From the NCBI GenBank assembly GCA_023248155.1, contig JAHFFE010000001.1, positions 84,873-148,872 of the forward strand: DNA of 64,000 bases. Direction: 5' to 3'. The position numbers and the translations under genes were made by a program. Every line of letters starts with the position of its first letter. Position 1 is the stretch's first letter. Below the pieces are notes generated by a model. The model was given only the letters and a program-made list of their open reading frames with translations. It ran no database searches and was not told where the DNA came from. Below, one piece after another: positions 19,999 through 43,598 of this stretch. This stretch comes from Candidatus Omnitrophota bacterium. GTDB taxonomy: Bacteria > Omnitrophota > Gorgyraeia > 1-14-0-20-64-10.

Positions 19999-20721
19999 AT
20001 GACCCCTCCCGGAACGCTTTACTTAGTAGGTACCCCGATAGGAAATCTGGGCGACATCACGCTGCGCGCTCTTGAAACTCTCAAAACCGTTTCATTGGTC
20101 GCCGCCGAGGATACCCGACGAACCAGCCAGCTGTTCCAACGATTTGATATTCATACCCCGCTGACCAGTCTGCATGAACACAACGAAGGCCAGAAAGCGC
20201 TGCAGTTGATCGAACGGATCAAAGCAGGACAATCGGTAGCATTGGTCACCGACGCCGGAATGCCGGTTATTTCCGACCCAGGGGCTTACCTGGCGCAGTT
20301 GGCCTGGGAGGCCGGCCTGCCGGTTACGACGATTCCGGGGCCTAACGCCGCCGTCGCGGCGCTGGCACTTTCCGGATTTCGCGGCGAACGGTTCCGGTTT
20401 GAAGGGTTTCCTCCCAAAAAAACGGCGGCGATGGAACGATGGCTCAAAGAATTATCGACTGAAAAAATCCCGGTGATTTGCTACGAATCACCGATGCGTC
20501 TGGTAAAAACGCTGGAGTTGATCAAAAAAGTGCTGGGCGAAATTCCGATCGTCGTCGCGCGCGAACTGACAAAACTGCATGAAGAAGTGACGCGCGGCTC
20601 GACAAGCGAGGTTCTCGCGCGCTATACTACACGAGCGCCCAAAGGCGAAGTGACGCTTCTTTTTTTGCCGACTGAAAACGAAAATGACGAACCCAAAAAT
20701 CCATCCCACAGCGATCATTGA
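19999..20721 (+). CDS. rsmI: 16S rRNA (cytidine1402-2'-O)-methyltransferase RsmI
   Basis: LYLVGTPIGNLGDITLRALETLK...VAAEDTRRT...; tetrapyrrole-methylase fold. Confidence 0.85.
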   Translation: MTPPGTLYLVGTPIGNLGDITLRALETLKTVSLVAAEDTRRTSQLFQRFDIHTPLTSLHEHNEGQKALQLIERIKAGQSVALVTDAGMPVISDPGAYLAQLAWEAGLPVTTIPGPNAAVAALALSGFRGERFRFEGFPPKKTAAMERWLKELSTEKIPVICYESPMRLVKTLELIKKVLGEIPIVVARELTKLHEEVTRGSTSEVLARYTTRAPKGEVTLLFLPTENENDEPKNPSHSDH

Positions 20722-21514
20722 TCCGGCCGCACAAATCGGCGCCGATGTTGAAATCGGGCCGTATGCCGTGATTGAAGGGGCCGTTAAAATCGGCCGCGGA
20801 ACCAAAATCTGGCCGCATGTCTATTTAGTTGCTCCTCTGGAAATTGGCGAAGAATGCCAAATTCATGTCGGCGCGGTGCTGGGACATCTTCATCAGGCGC
20901 TGCGCGAACAGCAGGTGGGCGGCGTGAAGATCGGCGACCGTACGATCATTCGCGAGTATGCATCGGTGCACCGCTCGTCGCAAAAAGGGACGAATACGAC
21001 GATCGGCTCGGACTGTTTATTGATGGGAACCGTTCATGTGGCGCATGACTGCACCATCGGAAATAAAGTGATTGTTTCCAATGGGACGCTGATCGCCGGG
21101 CATGTCACCGTTGAAGACAAGGCTATTTTGTCCGGGCATGTGGCCGTGCATCAATTCGTCCGGATCGGAACACTGTCGATGATCGGAGGTCTGGCGCGCG
21201 TGAACAAGGATGTGCCGCCCTATTTTCTGGTCAAGGGAGACTCGGAAGTCTGGTCTATGAACTTAGTTGGTATCAAGCGGGCGGGCATGTCGGAACGGTC
21301 CCGCGAAGGGATCCGGGAGGCCTATCGCCTGCTTTACCGGACCGGTTTAAACACCACGCAGGCGGTCAAATCGATCCAGGCGATGGATAAACTAACGCCG
21401 GAAGTCCAGCATTTATTACAGTTTGTGCAAGAAAGCCGCCGCGGCGTCTGCCGGCATCATCTGCGTATGCCGGAAGAGAGCCTCCTTGACATTGATGGTG
21501 ATGATGGGGTATAA
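20684..21514 (+). CDS. lpxA: acyl-ACP--UDP-N-acetylglucosamine O-acyltransferase (LpxA-like left-handed beta-helix protein)
   Basis: N-terminal IHPTAIIDPAAQIGADVEIGPYAVI hexapeptide repeats plus a C-terminal helical domain; 38-nt overlap with rsmI. Confidence 0.75.
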   Translation: MTNPKIHPTAIIDPAAQIGADVEIGPYAVIEGAVKIGRGTKIWPHVYLVAPLEIGEECQIHVGAVLGHLHQALREQQVGGVKIGDRTIIREYASVHRSSQKGTNTTIGSDCLLMGTVHVAHDCTIGNKVIVSNGTLIAGHVTVEDKAILSGHVAVHQFVRIGTLSMIGGLARVNKDVPPYFLVKGDSEVWSMNLVGIKRAGMSERSREGIREAYRLLYRTGLNTTQAVKSIQAMDKLTPEVQHLLQFVQESRRGVCRHHLRMPEESLLDIDGDDGV

Positions 21515-21539
21515 TTCTTTTTAGTCAGTAGTTTAACAG

Positions 21540-21650
21540 CCTTTTAAACTGGTCCCGAGAGGCCAGAAAAGGAGCGTGTCAGGTGCATAACGGAATGTTT
21601 CTATTTGATCGCTCGTCTGCGTATAGTGCGCGGATGAGCTTTTTTTATGC
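21540..21650 (+). promoter_or_regulatory. PyrR-dependent transcription attenuator: PyrR-binding loop followed by an intrinsic terminator
   Basis: GGTCCCGAGAGGCC (21551-21564) fits the PyrR box ARUCCNGNGAGGYU and sits in the hairpin CUGGUCC...GGCCAG. Downstream hairpin GCTCGTCTGCG-tatagtg-CGCGGATGAGC followed by TTTTTTT (21611-21647), immediately upstream of pyrR. Confidence 0.65.
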
Positions 21651-21659
21651 CCAAAAATT

Positions 21660-22205
21660 ATGGAAACGGGCATGAAGTCAGTCATTCTGGATGCCGAAGG
21701 AGTCCGCCGCGCTTTTATCCGGATCGCCCATGAAATTCTGGAACGGCACCGGATCATTGAAAATATTGCGTTAGTCGGCATCCGCTCGCGCGGCGTCTTT
21801 TTGGCCCAGCGATTGGCGGCCAATCTGAAAGAGTTAACCGGTAAAGCGGTCCTGGTAGGCGCGCTGGACATTACACTTTACCGCGACGACTTGAGCATGC
21901 TGGCTGCCAACCCGATTATCCGCGCGACGGAGATTCCGTTTGATCTGACCGGAAAACAGGTAATCATCGTTGACGATGTTCTCTTTACGGGCCGCACGAT
22001 CCGCGCTGCGATGGATGCGCTGATCGATTTGGGCCGCCCCGAAGCGATCGAGCTGGCCGTTTTAATTGATCGCGGCCACCGCGAACTTCCGATCCGTGCC
22101 GATTACATCGGGAAAAATGTTCCGACGGCCCGGCAAGAACTGGTGCAGGTCCGCCTGACCGAAATTGATCACGCTGAAGAAGTAACTCTGGGGGAGAAAC
22201 TCTAA
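21660..22205 (+). CDS. pyrR: bifunctional pyr operon regulator / uracil phosphoribosyltransferase PyrR (the conserved N-terminus suggests the true start is the ATG at 21672, MKSVILD...)
   Basis: PRTase motif [21 protein letters not shown]; PyrR family. Confidence 0.9.
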
Positions 22206-23197
22206 TGGCCGCCTGGACCCGCAAAGATTTGCTGAGCCTCGAGGAACTTTCCAAGGAAGAACTGCTGTTATTGCTCGATCAGGCCAAGGCGTTTAAAGAA
22301 ATTTCACTGCGCCCGATCAAAAAAGTACCGGCGCTGCGCGGTCGAACCGTGGCGCTCTGCTTTTTGGAGCCGTCGACGCGGACGCGCGCCTCATTTGAGC
22401 TGGCCGCGAAACGGCTTTCAGCCGACCTGCTGTCGTTTCAAGGAAATTCATCCAGCATCACCAAGGGCGAATCGGTCGTCGATACCGCGCGCAACATTGA
22501 GGCGATGCGTGTGGATGTCATAGTCCTTCGGCACAACACCAGCGGAACGCCGGCGCAGGTGGCGCATGCCGTGAAAGCCAGCATCATCAACGCCGGCGAC
22601 GGTTCCCACGAACATCCGACGCAGGGATTAATCGATCTGTTCACCATTCAGGAAAAAAAGGGACGGATTGAAGGGCTGAATGTGGTGATCGTCGGAGATA
22701 TCCTGCATTCGCGCGTGGCCCGCTCCGATTTATGGGGATTAATGAAGCTGGGCGCTAAAGTCACGCTGTGCGGCCCCCCGACGCTGGTTCCGTCCGCAAT
22801 GGAACAGCTGGGCGCCAAAATCAGTTATCGCCTCGACGATGTATTGCCGAAGGCCGATGTGGTGATTGCGCTGCGGCTTCAGCTGGAACGGCAGCAGGAA
22901 AAATATATCCCGTCGTTTCGCGAATATACGCGGCTCTATGGCATCGACAGCGACCGATTGAAAAAAGCAAAACCGGATTTGACGATCATGCATCCAGGCC
23001 CGGTCAACCGCGGATTGGAACTTTCATCGGAAGTGGCGGACGGCCCGCAGTCGGTGATTTTGGATCAGGTGACCAATGGCATTGCCGTGCGAATGGCCGC
23101 GCTTTATCTGGTGGCCGGCATTCATCCGGCCGACGAAGAACCGGTGAGTGAGCCGGGCAGAATTGACCTGCCGGTTCGGGAGAAACAGGTCCGATGA
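22205..23197 (+). CDS. pyrB: aspartate carbamoyltransferase catalytic subunit
   Basis: STRTR, HPTQGL and ATCase motifs. Confidence 0.95.
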   Translation: MAAWTRKDLLSLEELSKEELLLLLDQAKAFKEISLRPIKKVPALRGRTVALCFLEPSTRTRASFELAAKRLSADLLSFQGNSSSITKGESVVDTARNIEAMRVDVIVLRHNTSGTPAQVAHAVKASIINAGDGSHEHPTQGLIDLFTIQEKKGRIEGLNVVIVGDILHSRVARSDLWGLMKLGAKVTLCGPPTLVPSAMEQLGAKISYRLDDVLPKADVVIALRLQLERQQEKYIPSFREYTRLYGIDSDRLKKAKPDLTIMHPGPVNRGLELSSEVADGPQSVILDQVTNGIAVRMAALYLVAGIHPADEEPVSEPGRIDLPVREKQVR

Positions 23198-24498
23198 GCG
23201 CGAAAACAATTTTATTAAAGGGCGGACGGCTGATCGATCCGTCGCAGGGCATCGACGGCCAGCACGATCTGTTGATCGAGAATGGCCGCATTGCGAAAGT
23301 CGGAAAAAATCTGAAAGCCGATTCGGCCGAAACGATCGAGTTAAAAGGCAAGATTGTCTGCCCCGGCTTCATTGATCTGCATGTCCATTTCCGGACGCCC
23401 GGACAAGAGCATAAAGAAACGATTCGCACCGGATCGCGCGCCGCGTTGTCCGGCGGATTTACGACGGTTTGTTTGATGGCCAATACCGATCCGGTTGTCG
23501 ATTCACCCACCATCGTCGAATTCATCAAGGGTGAGGCTGCGAAAGTCGGGCTAATTCAGGTTCTTCCATACGGCGCGGTGACGCTCGGTTTGAAAGGGGA
23601 AAACCTGACCGAGATGGCTGCTTTGCAGGAGGCCGGCGTCGTTGGATTCTCCGACGATGGAATGCCAGTTTCCAATGCCGGTATGATGCGCCGCGCGCTG
23701 GAATACAGCCGCGTAACCGGACTGCCGGTCATTGATCACTGCGAAGAAAAAGAGTTAAGCGGGCATGGCGTGATGCATGAAGGATTGACTTCCTGCCGGT
23801 TGGGATTGGCCGGAGTTCCGTCAGAAGCCGAAACGGTGATGATTGCGCGCGATCTTCTGCTGGCCGAGGCGACCGGAGGAAAATTGCATATCGCGCATGT
23901 CAGTACGGTGGCCGGCGCGGAATTAATCCGGGCCGCGAAAAAACGCGGTGTTCCGGTTACCGCCGAAGTGACGCCGCACCATTTGACGCTGTCGGAAGAA
24001 GCGCTGGAGAGTTACGATTCCCGGTTCAAGATGAACCCGCCGCTTCGCCCGAAAAAAGATGCACAGGCGCTGCGCGAAGCGCTCAACGACGGAACGATTG
24101 ATGCGATTGCCACCGATCATGCCCCGCATTCGTTGTCGGAAAAAGAAACAGGACTCATTCAGGCGCCGTTCGGCGTGATCGGGCTTGAGACGGCGCTGGC
24201 CGTTTTGTTAACGGAGTTGGTGCACAAGCAAGGTTTCTCTCTGGCAACGCTGATTGCCGCATGGACGCACAAACCGGCGAAAGTAATCGGCAGTGACCGG
24301 GGTACATTGGCCGTCGGGGCTCCGGCCGATATCACAGTCTTTGACCCGGAGCAGGAATGGAGTCCGGATGCCGGGCAAACCGCCTCAAAAAGCAAAAACA
24401 GCCCGTTTATCGGATGGAAATTGAAGGGCCGCGTGACGGATGTGTGGGTTTCAGGACAGGCTCGCTACCGCGATGGACGATTTTTAACCGAGGACTAA
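23194..24498 (+). CDS. pyrC: dihydroorotase (multimeric type)
   Basis: DLHVHFRTPG metal-binding motif; 434 aa. Confidence 0.9.
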   Translation: MSAKTILLKGGRLIDPSQGIDGQHDLLIENGRIAKVGKNLKADSAETIELKGKIVCPGFIDLHVHFRTPGQEHKETIRTGSRAALSGGFTTVCLMANTDPVVDSPTIVEFIKGEAAKVGLIQVLPYGAVTLGLKGENLTEMAALQEAGVVGFSDDGMPVSNAGMMRRALEYSRVTGLPVIDHCEEKELSGHGVMHEGLTSCRLGLAGVPSEAETVMIARDLLLAEATGGKLHIAHVSTVAGAELIRAAKKRGVPVTAEVTPHHLTLSEEALESYDSRFKMNPPLRPKKDAQALREALNDGTIDAIATDHAPHSLSEKETGLIQAPFGVIGLETALAVLLTELVHKQGFSLATLIAAWTHKPAKVIGSDRGTLAVGAPADITVFDPEQEWSPDAGQTASKSKNSPFIGWKLKGRVTDVWVSGQARYRDGRFLTED

Positions 24499-24499
24499 A

Positions 24500-25192
24500 A
24501 TGAACAAACAGTTTCGATCAATTGGAGTGGTCGGTTTTCTGTTGCTCGCGGCAACCGCCGCGTTCGCCGAAGATGCGGCGTTGCCAAACGAAGCTGTCGA
24601 GCTTCAGAAAAAAGCGGAACAGCTGAAAAGCTACAAAGCCTCATTCTCGCTGGCGGCCAAGGAAGAAAACGGGAAAGAGTTTAAGATGGAAGGGACGATG
24701 ATTTATCAAAAACCGGATCATCGCCGACTGGAAATGAAAGAAACCGGCACCGAAGGGGCTCCGCAGCAGCTGGTTTCCGACGGGAAAACGGAATGGCAGT
24801 ATTACCCCGAGGGGAAAGCCGCCTACAAAATAAACAATCCGCCGGCTGCGCCCGGACCGCACCGCGCGTTTGCCGACATCAAGCCGGGCACGGTCCGTTT
24901 TCTCGGAAAGACCGGCGACGGCCTTTCGTTTGAAGCCGAACCGCAGCCGAATGTTGTGGAACAGGCTCCCGTGAAAGTAGAAAAAGTCCGCCTGGTATTG
25001 GATGAAAACAACGGCTTGATTAAATCAATGGCACTGATGGGTGAAAACGGGGAAGAAGTGCTCACGCAGAAATTTTTCGACATTGAAACTAACATTGCGG
25101 TTCCCGACGACACATTCCGGTTTACGCTCCCCGAAGGTGTCTCGGTCATGGAAGTGCCGGTTCCGGGCACGGAGGCTGTCGCCGAACAATGA
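24500..25192 (+). CDS. periplasmic LolA/RseB-fold protein (signal peptide), inserted between pyrC and carA
   Basis: Signal peptide MNKQFRSIGVVGFLLLAATAAFA; ...FKMEGTMIYQKPDHRRLEM... and C-terminal ...FRFTLPEGVSVMEV resemble the LolA-like family. Confidence 0.5.
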   Translation: MNKQFRSIGVVGFLLLAATAAFAEDAALPNEAVELQKKAEQLKSYKASFSLAAKEENGKEFKMEGTMIYQKPDHRRLEMKETGTEGAPQQLVSDGKTEWQYYPEGKAAYKINNPPAAPGPHRAFADIKPGTVRFLGKTGDGLSFEAEPQPNVVEQAPVKVEKVRLVLDENNGLIKSMALMGENGEEVLTQKFFDIETNIAVPDDTFRFTLPEGVSVMEVPVPGTEAVAEQ

Positions 25193-26286
25193 CGCAGGCG
25201 CTTCTGGCACTGGAGGACGGGACCGTATTTCGGGGACAGGCGTTCGGAGCGCCCGGTGAAATTTCGGGTGAAGTGATTTTTAACACGTCGATGACCGGTT
25301 ACCAGGAAATCGTTTCCGATCCGTCGTACCGCGGCCAGATCGTCGTGATGACCTATCCGCTGATTGGAAATTACGGCGTCAACGCGGCTGACCTGGAATC
25401 ACTGAAGCCGCAGGCCGAAGGATTCGTGGTCCGCAGTTTAAGCCCGATGGCTTCGAGCTGGCGCAAAGAAAAAACGCTCGAAGAATGGCTGACGGCGCAC
25501 GGCACCGTGGCGGTCCAGGGCATCGATACGCGCGCGCTGACATGCCTGCTGCGCGAAAAAGGGGCGCTCAAAGGCGTCATTTCAACCACCGACGGCGATG
25601 CGCGCCGCCTCGTCGAGAAAGCGAAAAAATCGACGGGTCTGGTCGGCCGCGATTTAGTCAGCGAAGTCACCTGCGGCAAAATTCATCCTTGGCCGGAAGC
25701 TCCATCCGTAGCCCGTCCGTTCCGCGTGGCTGCCGTTGACTGCGGAATGAAGACGCATATTCCGCGCATGCTGACGCAGGCCGGCTGCCAGGTCACGATT
25801 GTTCCTTCCACGGTCCGGTATGAAGAATTAATGGAATTGAAACCGGACGGCCTGTTTATTTCCAACGGTCCCGGCGATCCGGAAGCGGCTGTCTCGCTGA
25901 TCTCCGTCGCGCAAAAATGCGTTGGGAAAATGCCGATCTTCGGAATCTGCCTGGGGCACCAGATCCTGGGCCTGGCACTGGGCGGAAAAACCTACAAATT
26001 AAAATTTGGGCACCATGGCGGAAATCACCCCGTGATGAATCTCGACACCGGGAAAGTGGAAATCACGGCGCAAAACCACGGATTTGCCGTCGATCCGACG
26101 TCAATTCCCGGCAGCGATGTCCGGATGACGCATCTGAATCTGAATGATAAAACCTGCGAAGGGATGCGGCATACAAAAGCGCCGTTGTTTTCAGTGCAGT
26201 ATCATCCCGAGGCCTCTCCCGGCCCGCATGATTCTCAATACCTGTTCGATCAATTTGTGACGATGATGAAAACGCAAAGGGCTTAA
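25189..26286 (+). CDS. carA: carbamoyl-phosphate synthase small (glutaminase) subunit
   Basis: GATase triad region GICLGHQILGLALGG; HPEASPGPHD. Confidence 0.95.
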   Translation: MTQALLALEDGTVFRGQAFGAPGEISGEVIFNTSMTGYQEIVSDPSYRGQIVVMTYPLIGNYGVNAADLESLKPQAEGFVVRSLSPMASSWRKEKTLEEWLTAHGTVAVQGIDTRALTCLLREKGALKGVISTTDGDARRLVEKAKKSTGLVGRDLVSEVTCGKIHPWPEAPSVARPFRVAAVDCGMKTHIPRMLTQAGCQVTIVPSTVRYEELMELKPDGLFISNGPGDPEAAVSLISVAQKCVGKMPIFGICLGHQILGLALGGKTYKLKFGHHGGNHPVMNLDTGKVEITAQNHGFAVDPTSIPGSDVRMTHLNLNDKTCEGMRHTKAPLFSVQYHPEASPGPHDSQYLFDQFVTMMKTQRA

Positions 26287-26290
26287 TTTG

Positions 26291-26935
26291 ATGAAAAACA
26301 AGATTCAGATTATTCTGATCGCCGTGCTCGTTGCGGCCGGTATTTGGTTTTTCTACACGAAGAAAACAACTCAGCCCGCCGCGGTTCCTGCCGCCGGTAC
26401 GGTCTCGCCGGCTTCCGTGACTGTTCTCAAGCCGGGCGAAAATCCGCCGGCAGCCCCGAAATCGAAACAACCGCCGGCTCCGCTGCGAATCCGTTTTGAA
26501 GCCAATGAACCGCCGGTACTTGGGAAACCGGCGCCGGTTGTTTTTTCGGTTTATCCGAATCCGGCAGTCTGGCCGAAGAATGCACAGGGCGAAGGACGGA
26601 TTGAATGGCTGCTGCGGATTCCTTCCGGCATCAAGCTGGAATCAAAGGAGTGGGAACCGGCAGCGCTTTCCGCGCAGGATAAAAATGAAGGATGGTCTTT
26701 GTACCAGTATGCTGAGAAAGTAACGATTCCGTCGGAGCCGGGCACCGAACCGCTCTCACAGCAAAAAGCGTTGTTGATTATCGCGGAACCGGGCGTCAAT
26801 TGGGTGATCACGGTCCGGGTGCGGATGGCGCATGGATCTGAATCGTGGCAGGCGTTTGGCGCGGTTTTCGCAACGGCCGACAGCCAAAAAGCTGAATTTC
26901 ATACAGCGCCAAAACTTTCAAATCAAAATGCCTAA
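26291..26935 (+). CDS. hypothetical membrane-anchored protein with a Pro-rich linker, inserted between carA and carB
   Basis: N-terminal [20 protein letters not shown], a P/A-rich stretch, then a ~130-aa domain of unknown function; 8-nt overlap with carB. Confidence 0.5.
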
Positions 26936-29900
26936 GCGGACAGACCTTCATAAAATTTTAATCATCGGGTCCGGACCGATCATCATCGGCCAGGCCTGCG
27001 AGTTTGATTATTCGGGCACGCAAGCCTGCAAGGCGCTTCGCGAAGAAGGGTACTCGGTTGTATTGGTCAATTCCAATCCGGCCACGATTATGACCGATCC
27101 GGAATTTGCCGACCGCACCTACATCGAGCCGGTCACGGCGGAGGCGGTCGAAAAAATCATCGCGAAAGAACGGCCCGATGCGCTACTGCCGACGCTGGGT
27201 GGACAAACCGGCCTGAATGTGGCGATGCAGCTGGCCGAGCGCGGCGTTCTTGAGAAATATAAGGTCCAGATGATCGGCGCTAACGCCGAAGCGATCCGGA
27301 AAGCGGAAGACCGCGAACTGTTCAAGCAGACGATGATAAAATGCGGACTCGATGTTCCGCGCAGCGGCGTTGCGCATACGCTCGAAGAAGCGCGCGCAGT
27401 CGCCGAAAAAATCGGATTTCCGAATGTGATCCGGCCCGCGTTTACGCTGGGCGGCACCGGCGGCGGCATTGCCTACAACCAGGACGAATTCGACCGGATC
27501 GCCGAGAACGGCCTCAGTTTAAGCATGGTCTCCGAAGTGCTGATCGAGGAATCGGTCGAAGGGTGGAAAGAATTTGAGCTGGAGGTGATGCGCGACCGTA
27601 ATGACAATGTCGTGATCGTCTGCTCGATCGAAAATTTTGATCCGATGGGCGTGCATACCGGCGATTCGATTACGGTAGCGCCCGCCCAGACGCTGACCGA
27701 CAAGGAAATGCAGGCGATGCGCAACGACGCGATCACGATCATCCGCGCGATCGGCGTGGAGACCGGCGGATCCAACGTGCAGTTTGCGGTCAATCCGCAG
27801 ACGGGCCGGCGCACCGTGATCGAAATGAACCCGCGCGTGTCGCGCTCGTCGGCGCTGGCCTCCAAGGCGACCGGTTTCCCGATCGCCAAGATCGCCGCGA
27901 AACTGGCGATCGGCTATACGCTCGACGAGCTTTCGAACGACATTACGCGGCAGACGCCGGCTTGTTTTGAACCGACGCTCGATTACTGCGTCGTGAAAAT
28001 TCCGCGCTGGGCGTTCGAAAAATTCCCGGGCGCCGATCCAACACTGACAGTCCAGATGAAATCGGTCGGTGAGGTGATGGCGATCGGACGCACGTTCAAA
28101 GAAGCGCTTCAAAAAGGGCTGCGCGGGCTGGAAATCGGCCGGTTTGGCCTGGGCGCCGATGGAAAAGATGCCGACTGGAATGCCGATGAACTGCGCAAAA
28201 AAATCCGGATTCCTAACGCTGAACGGATTTTCGCGATTCGCCAGGCGATGCTGACCGGAATTTCCGATGAGGAAATCCACAAACTTTCGAAAATCGACCT
28301 CTGGTTTCTGCGTGAAATCCGCCGGATTGTCGATGCGGAACAGCAACTGAAAAAAGTTTCCGTAAAAACAGCGACCGAGGAAATAGTTTGGGATGCCAAA
28401 CAACTCGGCTTCAGCGACCGTCAGCTGGCGTTTCTCTGGGGCAGCGATGAGATGGCGATCCGCCGCCTACGTCTCCAGCAGGGCGTAAAACCGGTTTTTT
28501 ATCTGGTTGATACCTGCTCGGCCGAATTTGACGCCTATACACCCTACTACTACTCCACCTACGAGCGGCCGCCGATTCTTCAAAACGAGATTGCTCCGGT
28601 TGTGCCTCGCAATGACAAGAGAAAGAAAATTATTATTTTGGGAGGCGGACCGAACCGGATCGGACAGGGGATCGAGTTTGACTACTGCTGCGTGCGCGCT
28701 GTTTTCTCGCTGCGTGAATCAGGTTACAAAACGATCATGGTCAACTCGAATCCGGAAACGGTTTCCACCGATTACGACACCTCCGACACGCTTTATTTCG
28801 AGCCGCTGACGCTCGAAGATGTTTTGAATATCGTTGATGTGGAAAAACCGGACGGTGTCGTCGTGCAATTGGGCGGCCAGACGCCACTGAACTTGGCGCT
28901 GTCGCTGGAGCGCGAAGGGGTTCCAATCATTGGCACCTCTCCACAGGAAATTGACCGCGCCGAGGACCGGAAAAAATTCAGCGCGATGATTGAAAAGCTG
29001 GGATTGATGCAGCCGCCCAACGGCACCGCGATGAAAACGGAAGAAGCGGTTGCCATCGCGAAACGGCTGACCTATCCGGTTTTGGTCCGTCCTTCCTACG
29101 TGCTGGGCGGCCGCGCGATGGAAATTGTCTACGACGAAGCCCACCTGCGCACTTATATGGAAAAAGCGACGCGTGTTTCGCCGGAACATCCGATCCTCGT
29201 CGACAAATTTTTACAGGAAGCGATCGAAGTGGATATTGATGTGATCGCCGACGGAGAGACCGCCGTGGTGGGCGGCATTCTTGAACATGTGGAAGAAGCC
29301 GGTGTTCATTCCGGCGATGCCGCGATGGCGATGCCGCCGCACACGCTTCCGAAATCGGTATTGGATGAAATCCGCCGCGCCAGCCACGCTATGGCGAAAG
29401 AACTTCACGTAAAGGGGCTTATGAACGCGCAGTTTGCTGTCAAAGACGGCGTTGTCTATGTGCTGGAAGTGAATCCGCGCGCTTCCCGCACGGTGCCGTT
29501 TGTTTCCAAAGCGATCGGCGTTCCGTTGGTGCGGCTGGCTGCCAAAGTGATGGCCGGACAGACGCTCAAGGAACTTGGTTTTACCGAAGAGATTCAAATA
29601 CCGTTCACGGCCGTCAAAGAATCGGTCTTTCCGTTCAGCCGGTTTTTCGGCGTCGACATCATTCTCGGCCCGGAAATGCGTTCCACCGGCGAAGTGATGG
29701 GCATCGACGAGTCGTTCGGCCTGGCATTTGCCAAGTCACAGATTGCCGCGTATCAGAAAGTTCCGTCCGAAGGAACCGTGTTCATCAGCGTGAAGGATCA
29801 TGACAAGCCCGCGGCAATTCCAATCGCGCGCCGCCTGGTTACACTGGGATTTAAAATTGTTTCCACGCGCGGCACCTGTGCCGTTTTGCGCCGCGAAGGC

Positions 29901-30212
29901 GTTTCCGTCGATGAAATCAATAAAATTCACGAAGGCCGCCCCGATGTTCTGGACCTGGTGCGTGACTCTAAAATTAACCTGATCATCAATACGCCGGCCG
30001 GCAAGGAAACGAAGGAAGATGAAACAAAAATCCGATCACTGGCCGTTGTCCGCGGAATTCCGTGCGTCACTACCATTCCGGGCGCGCAAGCGTTGGTGAC
30101 CGGTATTGAAGCGCTGCGTAAGGGATATGAAGTTCGCTCCATTCAGGAATGGCACCTGACGATTGCCGGCAATAAGACGCCGGTACGTCCGGTAGCCGGA
30201 AGCGTAAAATGA
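26928..30212 (+). CDS. carB: carbamoyl-phosphate synthase large subunit
   Basis: [30 protein letters not shown] with duplicated ATP-grasp halves and an MGS-like C-domain. The ORF-track start at 26832 is an upstream alternative codon. Confidence 0.95.
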
Positions 30213-31036
30213 TTCAGGCAACGGTCCCCGTTGTTTTCAATAAGCGGATCGCCAAAGATCATTATTTACTTCGCTTAAAGAGTTCGACCGTCGCCAAAAA
30301 ATCAAAACCGGGACAATTTGTTCATCTGCTGTGCGTCGAGAAACCAGGCATGGCCCCGTTGTTGCGCCGGCCGATCAGTATTTTTGACGCCGATCCAAAA
30401 ACTGGAACAATCGATCTGATCTATAAAGTGATGGGCGAAGGGACCGAGGTTTTGTCCAAAGTACGGTCGGGCGCGGCGCTGGATCTGTTGGGGCCGCTTG
30501 GTTCGACATTTCAAATACCGGCCTCCGTCCAAACCGTTTATTTGGTCGGAGGCGGTGTCGGCATTCCGCCGCTTTATTTTCTGGCCAAAGAATTAAAAAA
30601 GAACCACCGCGTAAGAACAGAAGTTTTTTTGGGCGCACGCACCAAGGAATGGGTGATTTGCGCTTCCGATTTTAAAAAACTGGGCGTTTCCGTTCATACG
30701 GCGACCGACGACGGCAGTCTGGGTCATCGCGGTTCCGTGGTGGATCTTCTGGTCTCTGTCATTACGCGTGAAACAAAGCAAGCCCGTCTCAAAGAAAAAT
30801 TAATTTGTATTTGCGGTCCGACCCGCATGATGCAGGCCGCTGCCGCGGCCTCCGGCCGGTTCGGTATCCCGGCGCAGGTTTCGCTTGAAGAACGGATGGG
30901 CTGTGCGATGGGCGTTTGCATGGGCTGCGTCGTTGAGGTCAACAGCGCGCCGGCCGGTTCGCATGCGCGGTTTCAGCGCGTTTGCACGGAAGGACCTGTT
31001 TTCCCATCGGAGGAAATCGTATGGAATATTCATTAG
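30209..31036 (+). CDS. pyrK: dihydroorotate dehydrogenase electron-transfer subunit
   Basis: FAD/NAD-binding domain plus C-terminal 2Fe-2S cysteines CGPTRMM...[13 protein letters not shown]. Confidence 0.85.
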
Positions 31037-31878
31037 TCCGGGTGTTTCGGTCTATTCCGGAATGGGTTCGTGGAAAACAACGAATCGCGCGGTGGATTTT
31101 GAAAAATCACTGTGACGCAAAAGACATAGTTGTGCAGGATAATAGAGGATTTTATTACCAAATTCCAAGCTTGAGAGAAACAATAAGTTTTTCATTGTGG
31201 GTGGATGGCTCATACGAACCGAAATTAATGAAAACCATCGAGAGGATGCTTGATCCCGGCGATTGTTTTGTCGATATCGGGGCGAACATTGGCACCTTTA
31301 CGATTCCAGCATCTCGGTGGGTGGGGTCTAATGGAGTAGTGGTAGCGGCAGAAGCTTCACCAAGCGTTCTTCCATATCTTCGTGAGAATGTTGCCCGAAA
31401 TATGGTATCAAATGCACGAATTATTCCTGTTGCTGTGGCCGGCCAATCGCTGGAAAAAATCGATTTTTATGAAGCACCCAAAGACAAATTTGGCATGGGA
31501 TCTCTTTCCCCCCAATTTTCGGCGCAGGCAGTTTCGGTTTTAGCAAAAACACTGGACCAAATTATAAAAGAAGAGGGAATCTCGCACGTTCATTTGATCA
31601 AAATAGATGTGGAAGGTCTTGAGGCGGAAGTTTTCCGTGGAGCAAAAAATATTTTATCGCAAAATCCATCCCCCATTATTTTCTTTGAGTTTTGTGATTG
31701 GGCCGAGGCGAGAGTTTCGAGCTTGAAGGTTGGGGAGGCCCAGAGTATATTGCTCGATTCGGGATACCAGATCTGGCTGCTGGATGATTTCATCAGAAAA
31801 AAGCCTCCACTGAGCCAGCCGTTGATCAAGGGGTTTGAAACGCTTGTTGCAATCCGGGATCCCAAAAATGAAAACTGA
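31021..31878 (+). CDS. FkbM-family SAM-dependent methyltransferase inserted between pyrK and pyrD (AT-richer than neighbours by eye)
   Basis: FVDIGANIGTFTIPA...AAEASP...KIDVEGLEAEVFRGAK matches FkbM motifs. Start MEYSLVR at 31021. Confidence 0.8.
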   Translation: MEYSLVRVFRSIPEWVRGKQRIARWILKNHCDAKDIVVQDNRGFYYQIPSLRETISFSLWVDGSYEPKLMKTIERMLDPGDCFVDIGANIGTFTIPASRWVGSNGVVVAAEASPSVLPYLRENVARNMVSNARIIPVAVAGQSLEKIDFYEAPKDKFGMGSLSPQFSAQAVSVLAKTLDQIIKEEGISHVHLIKIDVEGLEAEVFRGAKNILSQNPSPIIFFEFCDWAEARVSSLKVGEAQSILLDSGYQIWLLDDFIRKKPPLSQPLIKGFETLVAIRDPKNEN

Positions 31879-32836
31879 AATTTTCATCGGAAAATTAAAA
31901 CTGCAAAACCCCGTGATGGTTGCCTCCGGAACCTTCGGTTACGGCGAAGAGTACAACCGTTTGTATCCGGTGGACCGGCTCGGCGCGATCGTCACGAAAT
32001 CGATCAGCTTGAAACCGCGCTCGGGCAATCCGGCGCCGCGCATTTATGAAACGGCGTCGGGAATGCTCAATGCCATCGGCCTTCAGAATGTTGGCGCCGA
32101 TGCGTTCCTGAAAGAAAAAACACCTTTTTTGAATTCGCTGAAAAAAGCGAAAGTGATCGTCAACCTCGCCGGAGAATCGATTGAGGAATATGTGGAGCTG
32201 GCCCGGCGAATGGAGCGTGTATCCGCGGTGGACGGCATTGAGTTGAATATTTCCTGCCCCAATTGCGAGCGCGGCGGAATTGAATTTGGCGTTGATCCCG
32301 CTTTGACGGCGCAAGTGGTGGGCCGCGTGCGCAAAGTGACGCGCAAGCCGCTGATCGTGAAATTGTCTCCGAATGTCACCCAGATTGTCACAATCGCGCG
32401 CGCCGCCGTGGATGTGGGCGCCGACGCGCTGTCTCTGATTAATACGGTGTTGGCGACGGCAGTCGATATCCGGACCTGGAAACCGCGGATTGCCACGGTG
32501 ACCGGCGGGTTAAGCGGACCAGCCGTCAAACCGATCGCGCTGCGAATGGTGCTTCAGGTACACCGCGCGCTGCCTAAAGTTCCGCTGATCGGTATCGGCG
32601 GCGTTACCACCTGGGAAGATGCGGCGGAATTTCTGTTGTGCGGCGCCAGCGCCGTTCAGGTCGGAACCGCCAACTATGTGAATCCCAAAGCGCCGCTGCA
32701 AATCATCGATGGACTCAGCCGGTATTTGCAGGAAAAGAAATTAAAATCTCCGGCAGAATTGGTCGGAAAACTTCAGTTGCCCGGACAATGGCGCGGCGTT
32801 CCGCAGGTAATTTCCGGTGAGAGGAGAAAAAAATGA
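31868..32836 (+). CDS. pyrD: dihydroorotate dehydrogenase (class 1B catalytic subunit)
   Basis: MKTEIFIGKLKLQNPVMVASGTFGYGEEY...; TIM-barrel DHODH. Confidence 0.9.
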   Translation: MKTEIFIGKLKLQNPVMVASGTFGYGEEYNRLYPVDRLGAIVTKSISLKPRSGNPAPRIYETASGMLNAIGLQNVGADAFLKEKTPFLNSLKKAKVIVNLAGESIEEYVELARRMERVSAVDGIELNISCPNCERGGIEFGVDPALTAQVVGRVRKVTRKPLIVKLSPNVTQIVTIARAAVDVGADALSLINTVLATAVDIRTWKPRIATVTGGLSGPAVKPIALRMVLQVHRALPKVPLIGIGGVTTWEDAAEFLLCGASAVQVGTANYVNPKAPLQIIDGLSRYLQEKKLKSPAELVGKLQLPGQWRGVPQVISGERRKK

Positions 32837-33534
32837 AACCGGTCGACCGGCTGATCGTCGCACTGGATCTGGAATTGCTGGACGACGCGGAAGCGATGGT
32901 GAAACGGCTGATGCCGCTGGGCGTCACCCATTTTAAAGTGGGGCTGAACCTGTTTACGTTGTACGGTCCGTCGGCCGCGGATGTGGTCCATCGCAATGGC
33001 GGCAAGGTGTTTCTGGATTTGAAATTCCATGATATTCCGAACACCGTCGGCAACGCCGTAGAAGCGGCCAGCCGGCTGGGCGTCTGGATGACGAATCTGC
33101 ATGCGCAGGGCGGCAGCGCGATGATGCGTAAAGGACTTTTATTCGCAAAAGGGCCGCTGTTAATCGGCGTTACGGTGCTGACGTCGATGGCCGACAAAGA
33201 GCTGGCTGAGCTGGGAATCGTAAAGCCGGTCAAAGAGCAGGTCCTTTATCTGGCGCGACTGGCCAAAGAATCCGGCTTGAACGGAATTGTCGCCTCTGCG
33301 CAGGAAGCCGCCGCGATCCGCTCGGCCTGCGGAAACGATTTTTTGATCATTACGCCGGGTGTGCGTCCCTCTTCGTCTGAGAAAAACGACCAGCAGAGAA
33401 CAGCCACTCCGGCCGAAGCGGTCGCCGCCGGCGCCGATTATATCGTGGTGGGCCGCCCGATTCTGGAAGCCAAAGACCCCATTGAAGTCGTTCAATCGAT
33501 TGTGCGAGAATTGGAAGGAAAGAGAGGACCCTAG
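32833..33534 (+). CDS. pyrF: orotidine-5'-phosphate decarboxylase
   Basis: LIVALDL...HFKVGLNLF...DLKFHDIPNTV motifs. Confidence 0.9.
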   Translation: MKPVDRLIVALDLELLDDAEAMVKRLMPLGVTHFKVGLNLFTLYGPSAADVVHRNGGKVFLDLKFHDIPNTVGNAVEAASRLGVWMTNLHAQGGSAMMRKGLLFAKGPLLIGVTVLTSMADKELAELGIVKPVKEQVLYLARLAKESGLNGIVASAQEAAAIRSACGNDFLIITPGVRPSSSEKNDQQRTATPAEAVAAGADYIVVGRPILEAKDPIEVVQSIVRELEGKRGP

Positions 33535-33538
33535 AACG

Positions 33539-34114
33539 ATGCGATCCGACGATGTGCTGAGATTCTTCAAGGAATGCGGCGCTTTACTGGAAGGGCATTT
33601 TGTTCTTTCCAGCGGTTTGCACAGTTCTCAATATATGCAATGCGCTCTTTTGCTTCAGCATCCGGCGGTCGCCTCCAAATTATGCCTGGCGCTGGCCGAG
33701 CGATTTGTCAATGATGACATCACCTGCGTCGTAGCGCCTGCCATGGGCGGCATCATCGTTGGGTATGAAACAGCGCGCCATCTGCGCGTCCGTTCGATCT
33801 TCGGTGAGCGCCAGGACGGAAAATTTACGCTGCGCCGCGGTTTTGCGCTGGGGCCGGCCGACCGCTGCCTGCTCGTCGAGGATGTGGTAACCACCGGTGG
33901 GTCGGTGGAGGAACTGGCTGAAGTCGTCAAAAATGCCGGCGCGGCGGTGGTCGGCTATGGCGCGATTGTCGACCGTTCCAACGGCTGGGCCGTGTTCGAT
34001 ACGAAATTCCATGCATTGTTGAGCATGGAGATCAAAACATTCGAAGAGGCGCAATGCCCCATGTGCAAAGAAGGAATTCCAATCACCAAGCCGGGCAGCC
34101 GCGGCCTTAAATAG
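33539..34114 (+). CDS. pyrE: orotate phosphoribosyltransferase
   Basis: LLEGHFVLSSGLHSSQY...LLVEDVVTTGGSV PRTase motif. The ORF-track start at 33359 is an in-frame upstream extension. Confidence 0.85.
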   Translation: MRSDDVLRFFKECGALLEGHFVLSSGLHSSQYMQCALLLQHPAVASKLCLALAERFVNDDITCVVAPAMGGIIVGYETARHLRVRSIFGERQDGKFTLRRGFALGPADRCLLVEDVVTTGGSVEELAEVVKNAGAAVVGYGAIVDRSNGWAVFDTKFHALLSMEIKTFEEAQCPMCKEGIPITKPGSRGLK

Positions 34115-34154: not shown

Positions 34155-35024
34155 ATGCATTCGTTTATTCGATTGCTCCGTTTGCGGCATTGGGTAAAAA
34201 ACAGTATTATTTTTGCTCCAGTCTTATTCTCCAAGCAATTTCTGAACCCTCTCATTTTAATCAAAGCGTGGGCCGGCTTTTTTGGACTCTGCGCCATTGC
34301 CAGCCTCGTTTATCTCATCAACGATTTCGTCGACATTGAAAAAGATCGCCAACATCCCATTAAACGAGAGCGACCGCTTGCCTCCGGTGCTGTTCGGCCG
34401 CTTGAAGCGATGGTTCTGGCCGTTGTTTTGGTTGGCCTTGCCTTTTTGCCGGCCATTATACTGGGAAGACAATTTGGTCTGATACTGGTTTTGTATGTGA
34501 TCAATAACCTGCTCTATTCGCTCTGGCTTAAAAACAAGGTGATTTTGGATGCGATGACGATTGCCGTTGGATTTTATCTGCGCATGCTGGCCGGTGTTGC
34601 GGTCTGCCAGGTCATTCCATCGGCGTGGATTTTGCTGGCCACATTTTTTGTGGCGTTGTTTCTGGCGTTTGGGAAACGGCGCGCCGAACTTCTGCAGTTG
34701 GGGGATGAGGCCAAGGTCCACCGAACGGTGTTAGGCAGTTATACTAAAAATTTTCTGGATCAAATCTTGGTTATTCTTGCCACAATGATTATTTTGACCT
34801 ACAGTTTGTATGCTTATTCTGATTATGCGCGACTACGGTTTGGAACCGAAGCACTGGTTTATACGATTCCGTTTGTGATTTACGGCATTTTTCGTTATTT
34901 TTATCTGATTCAAAACTCTTCTCGGGAATCGGACCCTATCCTTCTTTTAACACAGGATAAACCTTCGGGAGTTTGTCTTCTTTTGTGGCTGATCAGCTCT
35001 GTTCTTATCATCTATCGCTATTAA
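34155..35024 (+). CDS. UbiA-family prenyltransferase, polyprenyl-phosphate phosphoribosyltransferase-like (DPPR-synthase-like)
   Basis: NDFVDIEKDRQHPIKRERPLASGAV motif; ~8 TM; AT-richer. Confidence 0.75.
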   Translation: MHSFIRLLRLRHWVKNSIIFAPVLFSKQFLNPLILIKAWAGFFGLCAIASLVYLINDFVDIEKDRQHPIKRERPLASGAVRPLEAMVLAVVLVGLAFLPAIILGRQFGLILVLYVINNLLYSLWLKNKVILDAMTIAVGFYLRMLAGVAVCQVIPSAWILLATFFVALFLAFGKRRAELLQLGDEAKVHRTVLGSYTKNFLDQILVILATMIILTYSLYAYSDYARLRFGTEALVYTIPFVIYGIFRYFYLIQNSSRESDPILLLTQDKPSGVCLLLWLISSVLIIYRY

Positions 35025-35043
35025 TCGGGTGGACGAGTAAAAA

Positions 35044-36057
35044 ATGAAAATCTTGTTAACCGGTGCTCCCGGCTGGCTTGGAAATCGTTGTCTTGAAGTT
35101 TTTTTGAACGGGTACCATGGAGAAGGTTCCGCGCTTCCGGCCGCCGAATTCCGCTGTCTTGTTTTGCCCGGGACCGATTTGAGTTCTTTTAGAAAAATCT
35201 ATCCCGTTGCTGAGATTGCCGAAGGCGACGTCCGTGACCCCTCCTCCTTGAAAAAAGCGGTTCAGGGCATTGATGCAGTAGTTCATCTGGTCGGCGTAAT
35301 CCATCCGAAAAAGGTTCTAGACTGGACTCAGATTAATGCTGAGGGAACCCGGCATTTAATCCAGGCTTGCGTTGAGGCTGGCGTGCGGCGCGTGATTCAT
35401 ATCAGCAGCAACTCGGTTGCCGGCACCACTCGGCAGCCGGTTTTAATGACCGAAACCGATCTGCCGAATCCGTATCTGGGCTATGGCCGCAGTAAATATC
35501 AGGCGGAGCAATTTGTGCAGAATGGGTGCCGTCGGCATGGACTGGAAGCCGTTATTTTACGGCCCTGCTGGTATTATGGCCCAGGCCAGCCGGATCGGCA
35601 AACGCGGTTTCTCAAGATGATCAAAAACGGCCATCCGCTCATTTTTGGAAACGGCCAGAATTTAAGAAGCATGTCTTACCTGGACAATACCATTCAGGCA
35701 ATCATCCAGGCGATCCGGACTCCGGTCGCCAACGGCCAGGTCTACTGGATTGCCGATGAGAAACCGTACAAAACAATCGAGATTTATGAAACAGTCGCCC
35801 GGCTTTTGAACGTTAAAAAAATGACGCCGCGCTATTTGCCCGACCTGATTTCCGAAGCTTGTCTGGCGGCCGACACGGTATTGCAGGCGGCCGGAATTTA
35901 TATTTCTGAAATTCATGTGGCCGGCGAACTGAATAAACATATTGCCTGCAGCATAGAAAAAGCGAAAAAAGAACTCGGCTATGCGCCGGCGGTGGGGTTG
36001 GAAGAAGGCTGGCGCCGGTCGATTGACTGGTGCCGAAAAACAGGCGTGGAGATTTAA
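35044..36057 (+). CDS. NAD-dependent epimerase/dehydratase (extended SDR)
   Basis: N-terminal LLTGAPGWLGNR Rossmann motif; YGRSK catalytic motif. Confidence 0.8.
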   Translation: MKILLTGAPGWLGNRCLEVFLNGYHGEGSALPAAEFRCLVLPGTDLSSFRKIYPVAEIAEGDVRDPSSLKKAVQGIDAVVHLVGVIHPKKVLDWTQINAEGTRHLIQACVEAGVRRVIHISSNSVAGTTRQPVLMTETDLPNPYLGYGRSKYQAEQFVQNGCRRHGLEAVILRPCWYYGPGQPDRQTRFLKMIKNGHPLIFGNGQNLRSMSYLDNTIQAIIQAIRTPVANGQVYWIADEKPYKTIEIYETVARLLNVKKMTPRYLPDLISEACLAADTVLQAAGIYISEIHVAGELNKHIACSIEKAKKELGYAPAVGLEEGWRRSIDWCRKTGVEI

Positions 36058-36059
36058 CA

Positions 36060-37097
36060 ATGCCCACCGTATTAATCACGGGCGGATCCGGTTTCTTTGG
36101 GCAGCATCTGTGCCGCCGGTTTTTACAGGGCGGGTACAAGGTTCGCGTACTCGACCGTACGCCGTTTCATGCGCCGGACCTTGAATCAAAGATCGAATTC
36201 ATTCAGGGGGATTTACAGGATTCGGACGTGGTCCTCCGGGCGGTTTCCGGATGCGAAATCGTGATTCATAATGCGGCCGTGGTTCCGTTGTCGCGCGCCG
36301 GAAAAGAATACTGGAACGTTAATGTGAACGGCACCCGCAATGTGCTGGCCGCTGCGCATGAAAACCACGTACGAAAACTGGTCCATATCTCGACGAGCGC
36401 CGTTTACGGTGACCCGGTTCATATGCCGATTGATGAAACAACACCGTTTACGCCGTTTGGTCAATATGGCCGGTCCAAGCAGGAAGCAGAATCGCTTTGC
36501 CAGACGTTCAAGAAAAACGGGCTGGACATCACCATCATCCGGCCTCGGCCGATTTTAGGATCGGGACGGCTGGGTATTCTTTACCTGCTGTTGGAATGGA
36601 TTCGGGAAGGGAAGAACTTTTACATTATGGGATCGGGTCGGAATAAATTTCAGCTAATCAGCGCTCAGGATTTAGCGCAGGTCTGCTGGCTGGCGTTTAA
36701 GAAACCGTGCCTGAATGAAGATTTCAATATCGGCACCGAAACTTTTTCCACGCTGCGCGAAGATTTGGAAGCACTGGCGCAGCATGCAGGAACCGGATCG
36801 CGCATCATTAGCCTTCCGGTGCTTCCGGCCCGCGTGATTCTCTGGTTTTTGGATCTGCTGCATTTGGCGCCGCTGGTCGGATGGCATTACCGGCTCTTGG
36901 AGCGTGATTTCTGGTTCTCCACCGAAAAAGCGAAGAGAATTCTGGGTTGGTCCAGCCGGCAGAGCAATGTACAAATGCTAATTGCCACCTACGACTGGTA
37001 TAGTGCCCATTATCGCGAATACGAACATTTTTCGGGAACCACGCATCAGTCTAAAGTGAAAATGGGCCTGCTGAATTTTCTCAAGAAGATTTCGTAG
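36060..37097 (+). CDS. NAD-dependent epimerase/dehydratase (extended SDR)
   Basis: MPTVLITGGSGFFGQHL...; YGRSK motif. ATG at 36060 follows the upstream stop by 2 nt. Confidence 0.8.
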   Translation: MPTVLITGGSGFFGQHLCRRFLQGGYKVRVLDRTPFHAPDLESKIEFIQGDLQDSDVVLRAVSGCEIVIHNAAVVPLSRAGKEYWNVNVNGTRNVLAAAHENHVRKLVHISTSAVYGDPVHMPIDETTPFTPFGQYGRSKQEAESLCQTFKKNGLDITIIRPRPILGSGRLGILYLLLEWIREGKNFYIMGSGRNKFQLISAQDLAQVCWLAFKKPCLNEDFNIGTETFSTLREDLEALAQHAGTGSRIISLPVLPARVILWFLDLLHLAPLVGWHYRLLERDFWFSTEKAKRILGWSSRQSNVQMLIATYDWYSAHYREYEHFSGTTHQSKVKMGLLNFLKKIS

Positions 37098-37110: not shown

Positions 37111-37186
37111 TGGTGCCGAGGCGCGGAATTGAACCGCGGACGCCAGGATTTTCAGTCCTGCGCTCTACCAACTGAGCTACCTCGGC
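37111..37186 (-). tRNA. tRNA-Phe (anticodon GAA), CCA encoded
   Basis: Reverse complement GCCGAGGTAGCTCAGTTGGTAGAGCGCAGGACTGAAAATCCTGGCGTCCGCGGTTCAATTCCGCGCCTCGGCACCA. Confidence 0.85.
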
Positions 37187-39174: not shown

Positions 39175-39320
39175 ATTGTAATAACGGGGCCGACGGGACG
39201 ATTTTGGAACCGGCCTAGACCCCACTAACGGTGATTTTAGCAGGTTTTTGGAGGAGTTTCGAGTCTGGTGCCTAACAAAAGAGGCCGAAAACTGGATCAG
39301 CTGAACGATCATTTAAGGAA

Positions 39321-40136: not shown

Positions 40137-40171
40137 ATTTCAAGTCCTTAAGAGGTCATCTATTTGAAAAA

Positions 40172-40246: not shown

Positions 40247-40289
40247 TCTAAGGACACTAGTATAGCAAAAAAAGATAGTTCCGAAAGCA

Positions 40290-43597: not shown

Positions 43598-43598
43598 A

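Follow-up and report, generated by a model that had tools for sequence, protein, structure and literature searches.

Why does a pyrimidine biosynthesis (pyr) operon in a Candidatus Omnitrophota bacterium carry three unrelated genes, two of which each part the two subunit genes of one enzyme? The operon occupies positions 21660–34114 of a 64,000-nucleotide stretch of contig JAHFFE010000001.1 (assembly GCA_023248155.1), hereafter the window. A sequence-only reading had described it as nine colinear pyr genes with three non-pyrimidine open reading frames (ORFs) interleaved, and family matches, coordinates and three assemblies bear that description out. In the explanation that we hold to be the probable one, a Bacillus-type, PyrR-attenuated pyr operon has become a long housekeeping transcription unit, with unrelated genes inserted at its cistron junctions. 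The association between the inserts and the pyr genes is then most likely architectural, a matter of promoter sharing in a compact genome with no biochemical role in pyrimidine synthesis.

A PyrR-type operon with three interleaved genes

The twelve tightly packed ORFs (nine pyr, three non-pyr) all lie on the + strand, at the positions given by the sequence-only reading, downstream of a promoter and a leader:

21486–21515, + strand: sigma-70-type promoter, TTGACA-18-TATAAT, 12/12 matches in a motif scan
21536–21646, + strand: probable PyrR-binding leader and attenuator, Rfam RF00515; the binding loop contains GGUCCCGAGAGGCC
21660–22205, + strand: pyrR, regulator/uracil phosphoribosyltransferase (NF003549, 250.5 bits against a cutoff of 138)
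22205–23197, + strand: pyrB, aspartate carbamoyltransferase (NF002032, 402.7 bits)
23194–24498, + strand: pyrC, dihydroorotase (TIGR00857, 451.9 bits)
24500–25192, + strand: gene for a LolA-family periplasmic protein (Pfam LolA, 41.9 bits)
25189–26286, + strand: carA, carbamoyl-phosphate synthetase small subunit (TIGR01368, 502.2 bits)
26291–26935, + strand: ORF6, exported protein of an orphan family (no Pfam or NCBIfam match)
26928–30212, + strand: carB, carbamoyl-phosphate synthetase large subunit (1094 aa from the ATG at 26928)
30209–31036, + strand: pyrK, electron-transfer subunit of a class 1B dihydroorotate dehydrogenase (PF10418, 51.6 bits)
31021–31878, + strand: gene for an FkbM-family S-adenosylmethionine (SAM) methyltransferase (PF05050, 69.1 bits against 22.7; TIGR01444, 96 bits against 37.7)
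31868–32836, + strand: pyrD, catalytic subunit of the class 1B dihydroorotate dehydrogenase (NF005574, 412.5 bits against 269)
32833–33534, + strand: pyrF, orotidine monophosphate decarboxylase (NF001273, 278 bits)
33539–34114, + strand: pyrE, orotate phosphoribosyltransferase (Pribosyltran domain only)

The pyr genes follow the Bacillus order (pyrR-pyrB-pyrC-carA-carB-pyrK-pyrD-pyrF-pyrE) and are colinear apart from the LolA-family gene between pyrC and carA, ORF6 between carA and carB, and the FkbM gene between pyrK and pyrD. Junction distances throughout the operon range from −16 to +4 nt. Because the gene order is identical in three independent assemblies of the same organism, the operon is not an assembly chimera. 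The carB call of 1094 aa agrees with the gene call in an independent assembly of this organism; for pyrR, an alternative ATG at 21672 may apply, the gene call at the related locus L004 being 177 aa. Most of the nine pyr products score far above their curated cutoffs. PyrK passes its Pfam model, contains FAD_binding_6 and NAD_binding_1 domains and scores 207 bits against the NCBIfam equivalog NF000799, under the cutoff of 314, and PyrD also matches TIGR01037 (362 bits). Together the two have the defining features of a class 1B dihydroorotate dehydrogenase, namely an FAD/NAD subunit with a C-terminal Fe-S domain and a 1B-family PyrD. The identity of pyrE rests on tblastn, which finds a gene 59–66% identical in the corresponding place of the operon in relatives.

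The promoter is the only perfect match within 19.9–37.3 kb and lies 20 nt 5′ of the PyrR leader. The leader matches model positions 1–115 of RF00515 at 52.2 bits (E = 5.7e-5) and ends in an intrinsic terminator, a 13-bp stem at 21611–21639 followed by U7 that reaches 21646. Leaders with binding loop and terminator are kept upstream of pyrR in four relatives (L004, L011, L013 and L018). The window leader was detected with Rfam in E-value mode and those of the relatives by direct reading of the sequences; at the Rfam gathering threshold, no PyrR site was returned in the window or in 8 relatives. A search of 21.3–34.3 kb found no second PyrR site besides the leader at 21536–21646. Within the operon, internal promoter-like matches (15 seen against 10.9 ± 3.0 expected) and terminator-like matches (35 against 27.2 ± 5.9) are both at the level of shuffled sequence. 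One promoter-like site at 24474–24501 was considered as a promoter for the LolA-family gene and rejected, since it matches at 9/12 positions, no better than noise, and its −10 element runs into the start codon. The anatomy thus points to a single PyrR-led transcription unit that would hold all three inserts, and PyrR-dependent co-regulation of the LolA-family gene, ORF6 and the FkbM gene would follow from it.

The operon resembles the Bacillus subtilis-type pyr operon (RF00515) in gene order, in its PyrR protein and in a probable leader with PyrR-binding loop and intrinsic terminator, and its backbone is shared with Chloroflexota and Bacillota loci. The B. subtilis pyr operon has three attenuators, and pyrP follows pyrR. 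In the window, by contrast, one attenuator was found, and three interleaved non-pyr genes split carA from carB and pyrK from pyrD.

The LolA-family gene and ORF6 in related loci

A scan of one genome per species, seeded with PyrK, gave 16 relative loci with PyrK 52–61% identical, all from metagenome-assembled genomes and labelled either Candidatus Omnitrophota (six) or 'uncultured Planctomycetia' (ten). Chloroflexota, Bacillota and other phyla contributed more distant loci. In a simple neighbour-joining tree of one protein, CarB, 13 of the 16 loci (those with a long enough CarB match) and two metagenome loci found by ORF6-seeded search group with the window. Outside this group, 10 Chloroflexota and Bacillota loci extend from pyrR to pyrD, and in none of them is the backbone from pyrB to pyrD interrupted. 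Both carA and carB are present in 15 non-Omnitrophota loci, and every one of these has the two genes side by side (gaps of −3 to 197 nt). Longer gaps were seen at other junctions: 1.5 kb from pyrR to pyrB in two Alkalibacillus loci and 1.6 kb from carB to pyrK in L049. Since no insert was seen at pyrC/carA or carA/carB in these comparison loci, interruptions at these two junctions are a feature of the Omnitrophota-type clade.

The first interruption, the LolA-family gene, starts 1 nt past the end of pyrC and shares 4 nt with carA. Its protein matches Pfam LolA (PF03548) over model positions 2–165 of 165, above the gathering threshold of 23.6 bits, and misses the NCBIfam equivalog TIGR00547 (62.9 bits against 112). 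All 11 orthologues pass Pfam LolA, and a profile built from them aligns end to end with LolA chains of solved structure, from E. coli and other bacteria (best E = 3.7e-10), the Protein Data Bank (PDB) chains matched being LolA chains only. A Sec signal peptide could be read directly from the sequence (MNKQFRSIGVVGFLLLAATAAFA/EDA, with no lipobox), and the orthologues carry comparable signal peptides. A single-sequence AlphaFold2 model reached a predicted local distance difference test (pLDDT) of 37 and was not used. The signal peptide, the mature length of ~200 aa, the full-length Pfam match and the profile E-values of ~1e-9 to 1e-10 are as for LolA (E. coli 1iwl, 6fhm); unlike those, the window protein is very divergent, falls under the TIGR00547 cutoff and is encoded in a pyr operon. 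Judged by these matches it is a divergent LolA-family member, with a predicted lipoprotein-carrier role. Of 13 related loci, 12 have the gene at the pyrC/carA junction; L018 lacks it.

The second interruption, ORF6, starts 4 nt past the end of carA and shares 8 nt with carB. Its product begins with a signal anchor, followed by a Pro-rich linker (about residues 28–62) and an all-beta immunoglobulin (Ig)-like domain (about residues 63–205). The family alignment shows the same parts: a signal anchor, replaced in several orthologues by a cleavable classical signal peptide, a linker of variable length that is often Pro-rich, and a conserved domain of ~150 residues. Searches of Pfam, NCBIfam and PDB sequences gave no match, and we detected no described family or specific structural relative. 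A word-indexed homologue search returned 4 clusters for ORF6 alone and 7 for a 13-sequence alignment, the latter number being small because low-complexity words filled the candidate list. An exhaustive hidden Markov model search of 1.84 billion representative proteins put the family at 55 clusters, all of 87–254 aa. AlphaFold2 predicts residues ~61–210 to form an all-beta sandwich, with block-mean pLDDT of 81–96 (mostly at least 86). Foldseek against the PDB matched this model only to generic cohesin, pilin and Ig-like sandwiches, the best being cohesin-like modules, pilin domains and GAE domains. At TM-scores of 0.3–0.56 and 6–17% identity, the likeness to Ig-like, cohesin-like and Gram-positive pilin beta-sandwich domains is at the level of fold class and assigns no function.

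What sets ORF6 apart is its position. It lies between carA and carB in 10 of the 11 PyrK-seeded loci, missing only in L019, which is basal on the CarB tree and has the LolA-family gene. In a metagenome scan seeded with the ORF6 alignment, carA was directly upstream in 7/7 loci and carB directly downstream in all six whose contigs continue. Every ORF6 homologue found thus has carA immediately 5′, and carB 3′ wherever the contig goes on. By these sequence criteria, ORF6 represents a new small orphan family of predicted exported proteins with a strictly fixed genomic position.

The junction with carB offers a probable reason for this fixity. In 9 of 11 lineages the stop codon of ORF6 and the start of carB overlap; five lineages have the 8-nt overlap ATGCCTAA in common, with the TAA stop formed from carB codons 2–3. 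The carB start lies inside the ORF6 3′ end with no evident Shine-Dalgarno sequence, and the upstream region mostly lacks one across lineages. Overlapping stop and start together with a missing Shine-Dalgarno is the pattern expected if CarB is made by termination-reinitiation after ORF6. If carB depends on ORF6 translation in this way, precise loss of ORF6 would be costly and its position would be frozen, so ORF6 is probably held in place by its coupling to carB. Such coupling should be judged against the background of long co-directional packing in this genome: all long ORFs of the ~29 kb from 9470 to 38470, including gyrB, gyrA and the pyr operon, are on the + strand with frequent overlaps of 1–8 nt, and throughout the window genes often overlap by 4 nt and run in long arrays on one strand.

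Both genes have a host-like G+C content at third codon positions (GC3), 0.60 for the LolA-family gene and 0.57 for ORF6, and both are under purifying selection. Between the window and relatives whose pyr proteins are 89–95% identical to its own, the ratio of nonsynonymous to synonymous substitution rates (dN/dS) is 0.09 for the LolA-family gene and 0.14–0.16 for ORF6, compared with 0.06–0.08 for the pyr genes and lpxA.

The FkbM gene and the pyrK/pyrD junction

The FkbM gene overlaps both of its neighbours, pyrK by 16 nt and pyrD by 11 nt, and a Shine-Dalgarno-like GGAGGA motif lies ahead of it within the pyrK 3′ end. The protein carries the SAM-binding motif VDIGANIG, which corresponds to an invariant D-x-G-A-N-x-G in the alignment with homologues. 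The FkbM domain and this motif are shared with the FkbM methyltransferases of O-antigen and glycan clusters (PF05050, with the Vibrio cholerae RfbT family, PF05575, related); unlike those genes, the window gene sits between pyrK and pyrD, outside a glycan cluster. Its nearest non-self homologues, 50% identical, are flanked by family 4 glycosyltransferases (GT4), DegT aminotransferases and a Wzy-like polymerase. From this placement of its homologues in glycan clusters, FkbM is most likely a glycan O-methyltransferase that was horizontally acquired.

At 0.445, the G+C content of the FkbM gene is low, and its GC3 of 0.427 falls below the 0.56–0.68 of its operon neighbours. Compared with the whole window it is no outlier (z = −1.6), resembling the glycan-synthesis genes at 37–47.6 kb. 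None of the 15 relatives has an FkbM gene at the pyrK/pyrD junction. Three have other occupants there, a Methyltransf_23 gene (L011), a gene for a TPR_12 protein (L013) and one for an exported protein resembling tetratricopeptide repeat (TPR) proteins (L017); the junction has been invaded recurrently and independently. FkbM looks like a recent arrival in this lineage. Two possible origins were rejected. A mobile element finds no support, the flanks of the gene having neither scars nor direct or inverted repeats beyond chance level, and recent duplication of the second FkbM gene of the window (40439–41260) is contradicted by an identity of only 30%.

The pyr operons of relatives hold still other genes, with up to six interleaved non-pyr genes in one operon. 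Most have an endonuclease Q gene (411 aa; L055:3653–4888) immediately 5′ of carA, with positional equivalents in L006, L009, L010, L016, L018, L020, L059 and L060; this gene is absent from the window. The protein gives a full-length match to the Pyrococcus furiosus EndoQ structure 5zb8 (E = 6.8e-65). EndoQ, a mainly archaeal enzyme, cleaves DNA at deoxyuridine and hypoxanthine. The presence of a nuclease for deoxyuridine repair within a pyrimidine operon is thematically suggestive. After the LolA-family gene, relatives encode a small exported TPR-like protein of ~105 aa with no Pfam match (L055:3328–3648 and equivalents). In the basal L019 the same slot encodes a protein of 173 aa whose TPR matches are weak and below threshold and which has a possible lipobox (LTGC). 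Between pyrF and pyrE, relatives encode a receiver-domain-only response regulator of ~250 aa (L055:12560–13309 and equivalents). The genes for the small TPR-like protein and the response regulator are absent from the operon in the window and from the remainder of its 64 kb. Both subclades of the CarB tree include loci with these extra genes; most likely, the lineage of the window has lost them and gained FkbM. Two further genes were seen between the LolA-family gene and carA, one for an exported protein of 463 aa in which a BclA_C (C1q-like) domain matches weakly (L009:655–2046) and one for a Mut7-C RNase-domain protein (L020:3151–3606; PF01927, E = 3.5e-37).

These comparisons sort the three inserts, which the sequence-only reading had treated as equivalent, into two kinds: the LolA-family gene and ORF6 are clade-conserved with host-like composition, and FkbM is recent. 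Its suggestion that the inserts might be lineage-specific thus applies to FkbM and fails for the other two. It had also named what would speak against its reading, inserts conserved across a whole phylum with known pyr-related roles; half of this was found, two inserts being clade-wide and neither having a detectable pyr-related role. The greater AT-richness of FkbM relative to its flanks is real, within the limit set by the whole-window comparison. Overlaps of 4–16 nt with both neighbours were claimed for all three, and this is correct for FkbM only; the other two begin shortly after the preceding stop. The phrase 'envelope-related hitchhikers under PyrR/UMP control' describes the architecture fairly, since all three are envelope-related or exported and sit in one PyrR-led unit; the control itself is a prediction.

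Explanations for the inserts, and the flanking genes

How would such an operon work? Transcription would start at the one strong promoter at 21486–21515. When uridine monophosphate and triphosphate (UMP/UTP) are plentiful, PyrR would bind the leader and the terminator at 21611–21639 would form; when pyrimidines are scarce, read-through would give one mRNA of ~12.5 kb, from which all 12 ORFs would be translated through stop/start overlaps or gaps of 1–4 nt. Two ancient residents, the LolA-family gene and ORF6, would have been fixed early in the clade at pyrC/carA and carA/carB, with other genes coming and going. In the course of this carB would have lost its own ribosome-binding site and come to be translated by termination-reinitiation from ORF6, whose stop lies inside the first carB codons. 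FkbM would be a recent arrival at the repeatedly invaded pyrK/pyrD junction, using the GGAGGA inside the pyrK 3′ end. Gene identities, the anatomy of the junctions, the promoter and leader motifs, the pattern of conservation, purifying selection and the export signals are observed in the sequences. Of this scheme, we infer the co-transcription, the PyrR control of the inserts, the reinitiation coupling, the FkbM substrate and the direction of gains and losses.

Several points weigh against this scheme. The leader scores slightly under the Rfam gathering threshold (52.2 against 54 bits), and weak internal promoters may be present. An essential LolA under pyrimidine repression would be hard to explain without a leaky attenuator or an internal promoter; a second lolA may also lie elsewhere in the genome. 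For FkbM, the contigs of the close relatives L004 and L005 stop before pyrK, and its uniqueness to this species rests in part on the protein database holding no FkbM that is 60–99% identical. The polarity of gains and losses is drawn from a one-protein, simple neighbour-joining tree. Finally, the strict positional conservation of ORF6 and the LolA-family gene, which a purely architectural model does not predict, could reflect selected co-regulation.

Selected co-regulation, a link that the sequence-only reading had also raised, would tie the envelope proteins (LolA, ORF6 and, in relatives, the small TPR protein) to pyrimidine status as a growth module, because UMP/UTP feeds the UDP-sugars that supply lipopolysaccharide, peptidoglycan and surface glycans. 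It would explain why two exported proteins are retained at fixed positions clade-wide, and the neighbourhood has a matching flavour. The lpxA gene, whose product uses UDP-GlcNAc, is the next gene upstream of pyrR in the window, as it is in L004, L011, L013, L018 and L058; a decaprenyl-phosphate phosphoribosyltransferase dependent on phosphoribosyl pyrophosphate (PRPP) and a large glycan cluster follow immediately downstream; and the incoming FkbM is likewise glycan-related. However, neither LolA nor the Ig-like protein uses nucleotide sugars, lpxA lies upstream of promoter and attenuator and so outside PyrR control, and the downstream glycan block is absent from relatives. The inserts of relatives are also miscellaneous (endonuclease Q, response regulator, Mut7-C RNase, TPR proteins), which fits opportunistic insertion better. 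We regard selected co-regulation as possible but unlikely.

If instead all three inserts were neutral or selfish passengers, acquired horizontally and with no fixed role in the lineage, FkbM would be the best example: its composition is unusual for the operon, and only this genome has it at the pyrK/pyrD junction, which varies across relatives. Even there, repeats and mobile-element scars are missing. For the LolA-family gene and ORF6, host-like GC3, purifying selection and retention across lineages with PyrK 52–61% identical speak against it; conservation and dN/dS rule it out for these two, which makes the reading improbable for the set of three.

A more speculative proposal, which we rate as very improbable, places ORF6 in a host-contact or envelope-remodelling programme that PyrR switches on at low pyrimidine, possibly together with the LolA-like and small exported TPR proteins; alternatively, ORF6 or the TPR protein would be the missing partner of LolA in outer-membrane lipoprotein delivery. 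Under the host-contact version, the lineage may consist of small, possibly host-dependent bacteria, with the PyrR attenuator acting as a nutritional sensor that controls a surface Ig-like protein along with biosynthesis.

The constant place of ORF6, with carA always directly upstream, carB downstream wherever the contig continues, and a conserved translational overlap with carB, could also suggest a carbamoyl-phosphate synthetase accessory such as a CarA-CarB membrane tether or an assembly factor. But the export signals, which in several orthologues are cleavable Sec signal peptides, predict an extracytoplasmic conserved domain while CarAB is cytoplasmic; the basal L019 and all other phyla make CarAB without ORF6; and its fold is only a generic Ig-like sandwich. 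An accessory role is accordingly the least credible of the functions considered here. That the three inserts are artefacts or shadow ORFs can be dismissed from their family matches, conservation and dN/dS.

Among the titles and abstracts screened from the Omnitrophota literature, we found no description of a pyr operon with such inserts. The operon is a variant of the known PyrR-type pyr operon that contains a new orphan exported-protein family, and is a testable curiosity of comparative genomics with no new mechanism. What it suggests is that unrelated genes can land in a textbook biosynthetic operon and use it as an expression platform over the long term, including cases in which the insert parts two subunit genes of one enzyme (carA/carB, pyrK/pyrD). 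It also locates a LolA gene of a little-known uncultured lineage, predicts that envelope proteins in this lineage respond to pyrimidine availability, and cautions against annotating genes inside metabolic operons through guilt by association.

The flanks of the operon differ in how far they are conserved. Directly upstream of the pyr promoter, an rsmI-like methylase gene (TP_methylase domain) and lpxA occupy 19999–21514 with a 38-nt overlap. The rsmI-like gene also precedes lpxA in L004, L011 and L058, where contigs extend far enough. From the conserved placement of lpxA next to pyrR it follows that in this clade the gene is detached from its usual lpxD-fabZ-lpxA-lpxB context. Between tRNA-Glu and the rsmI-like gene, a 769-aa ORF (17634–19943) has no Pfam or NCBIfam match.

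Downstream, one further feature borders the operon:

34155–37097, + strand: UbiA protein of the decaprenyl-phosphate phosphoribosyltransferase type (NF008977) and two NAD-dependent epimerase/dehydratase genes (epimerase domains)

This block of ~3 kb sits between pyrE and tRNA-Phe (37111–37186, − strand). Its UbiA-type gene (NF008977, 252.6 bits against a cutoff of 234; G+C content 0.449) places a PRPP-using enzyme directly after pyrE. Across the 40-nt gap from pyrE no terminator was found, and the block may be co-transcribed with the pyr operon. In six relatives tRNA-Phe follows pyrE within 15–1450 nt, so that the block looks like a second lineage-specific insertion, by the tRNA gene. Beyond it, a surface-glycan cluster (37190–48448) has a GC3 of 0.41–0.51, lower than in the pyr genes. 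Within it lie a GT9 heptosyltransferase gene, two class-I methyltransferase genes (− strand), tRNA-Asp, tRNA-Val, the second FkbM gene, several GT4 genes, an epimerase gene and an ABC-2 type exporter pair (46908–48448, − strand).

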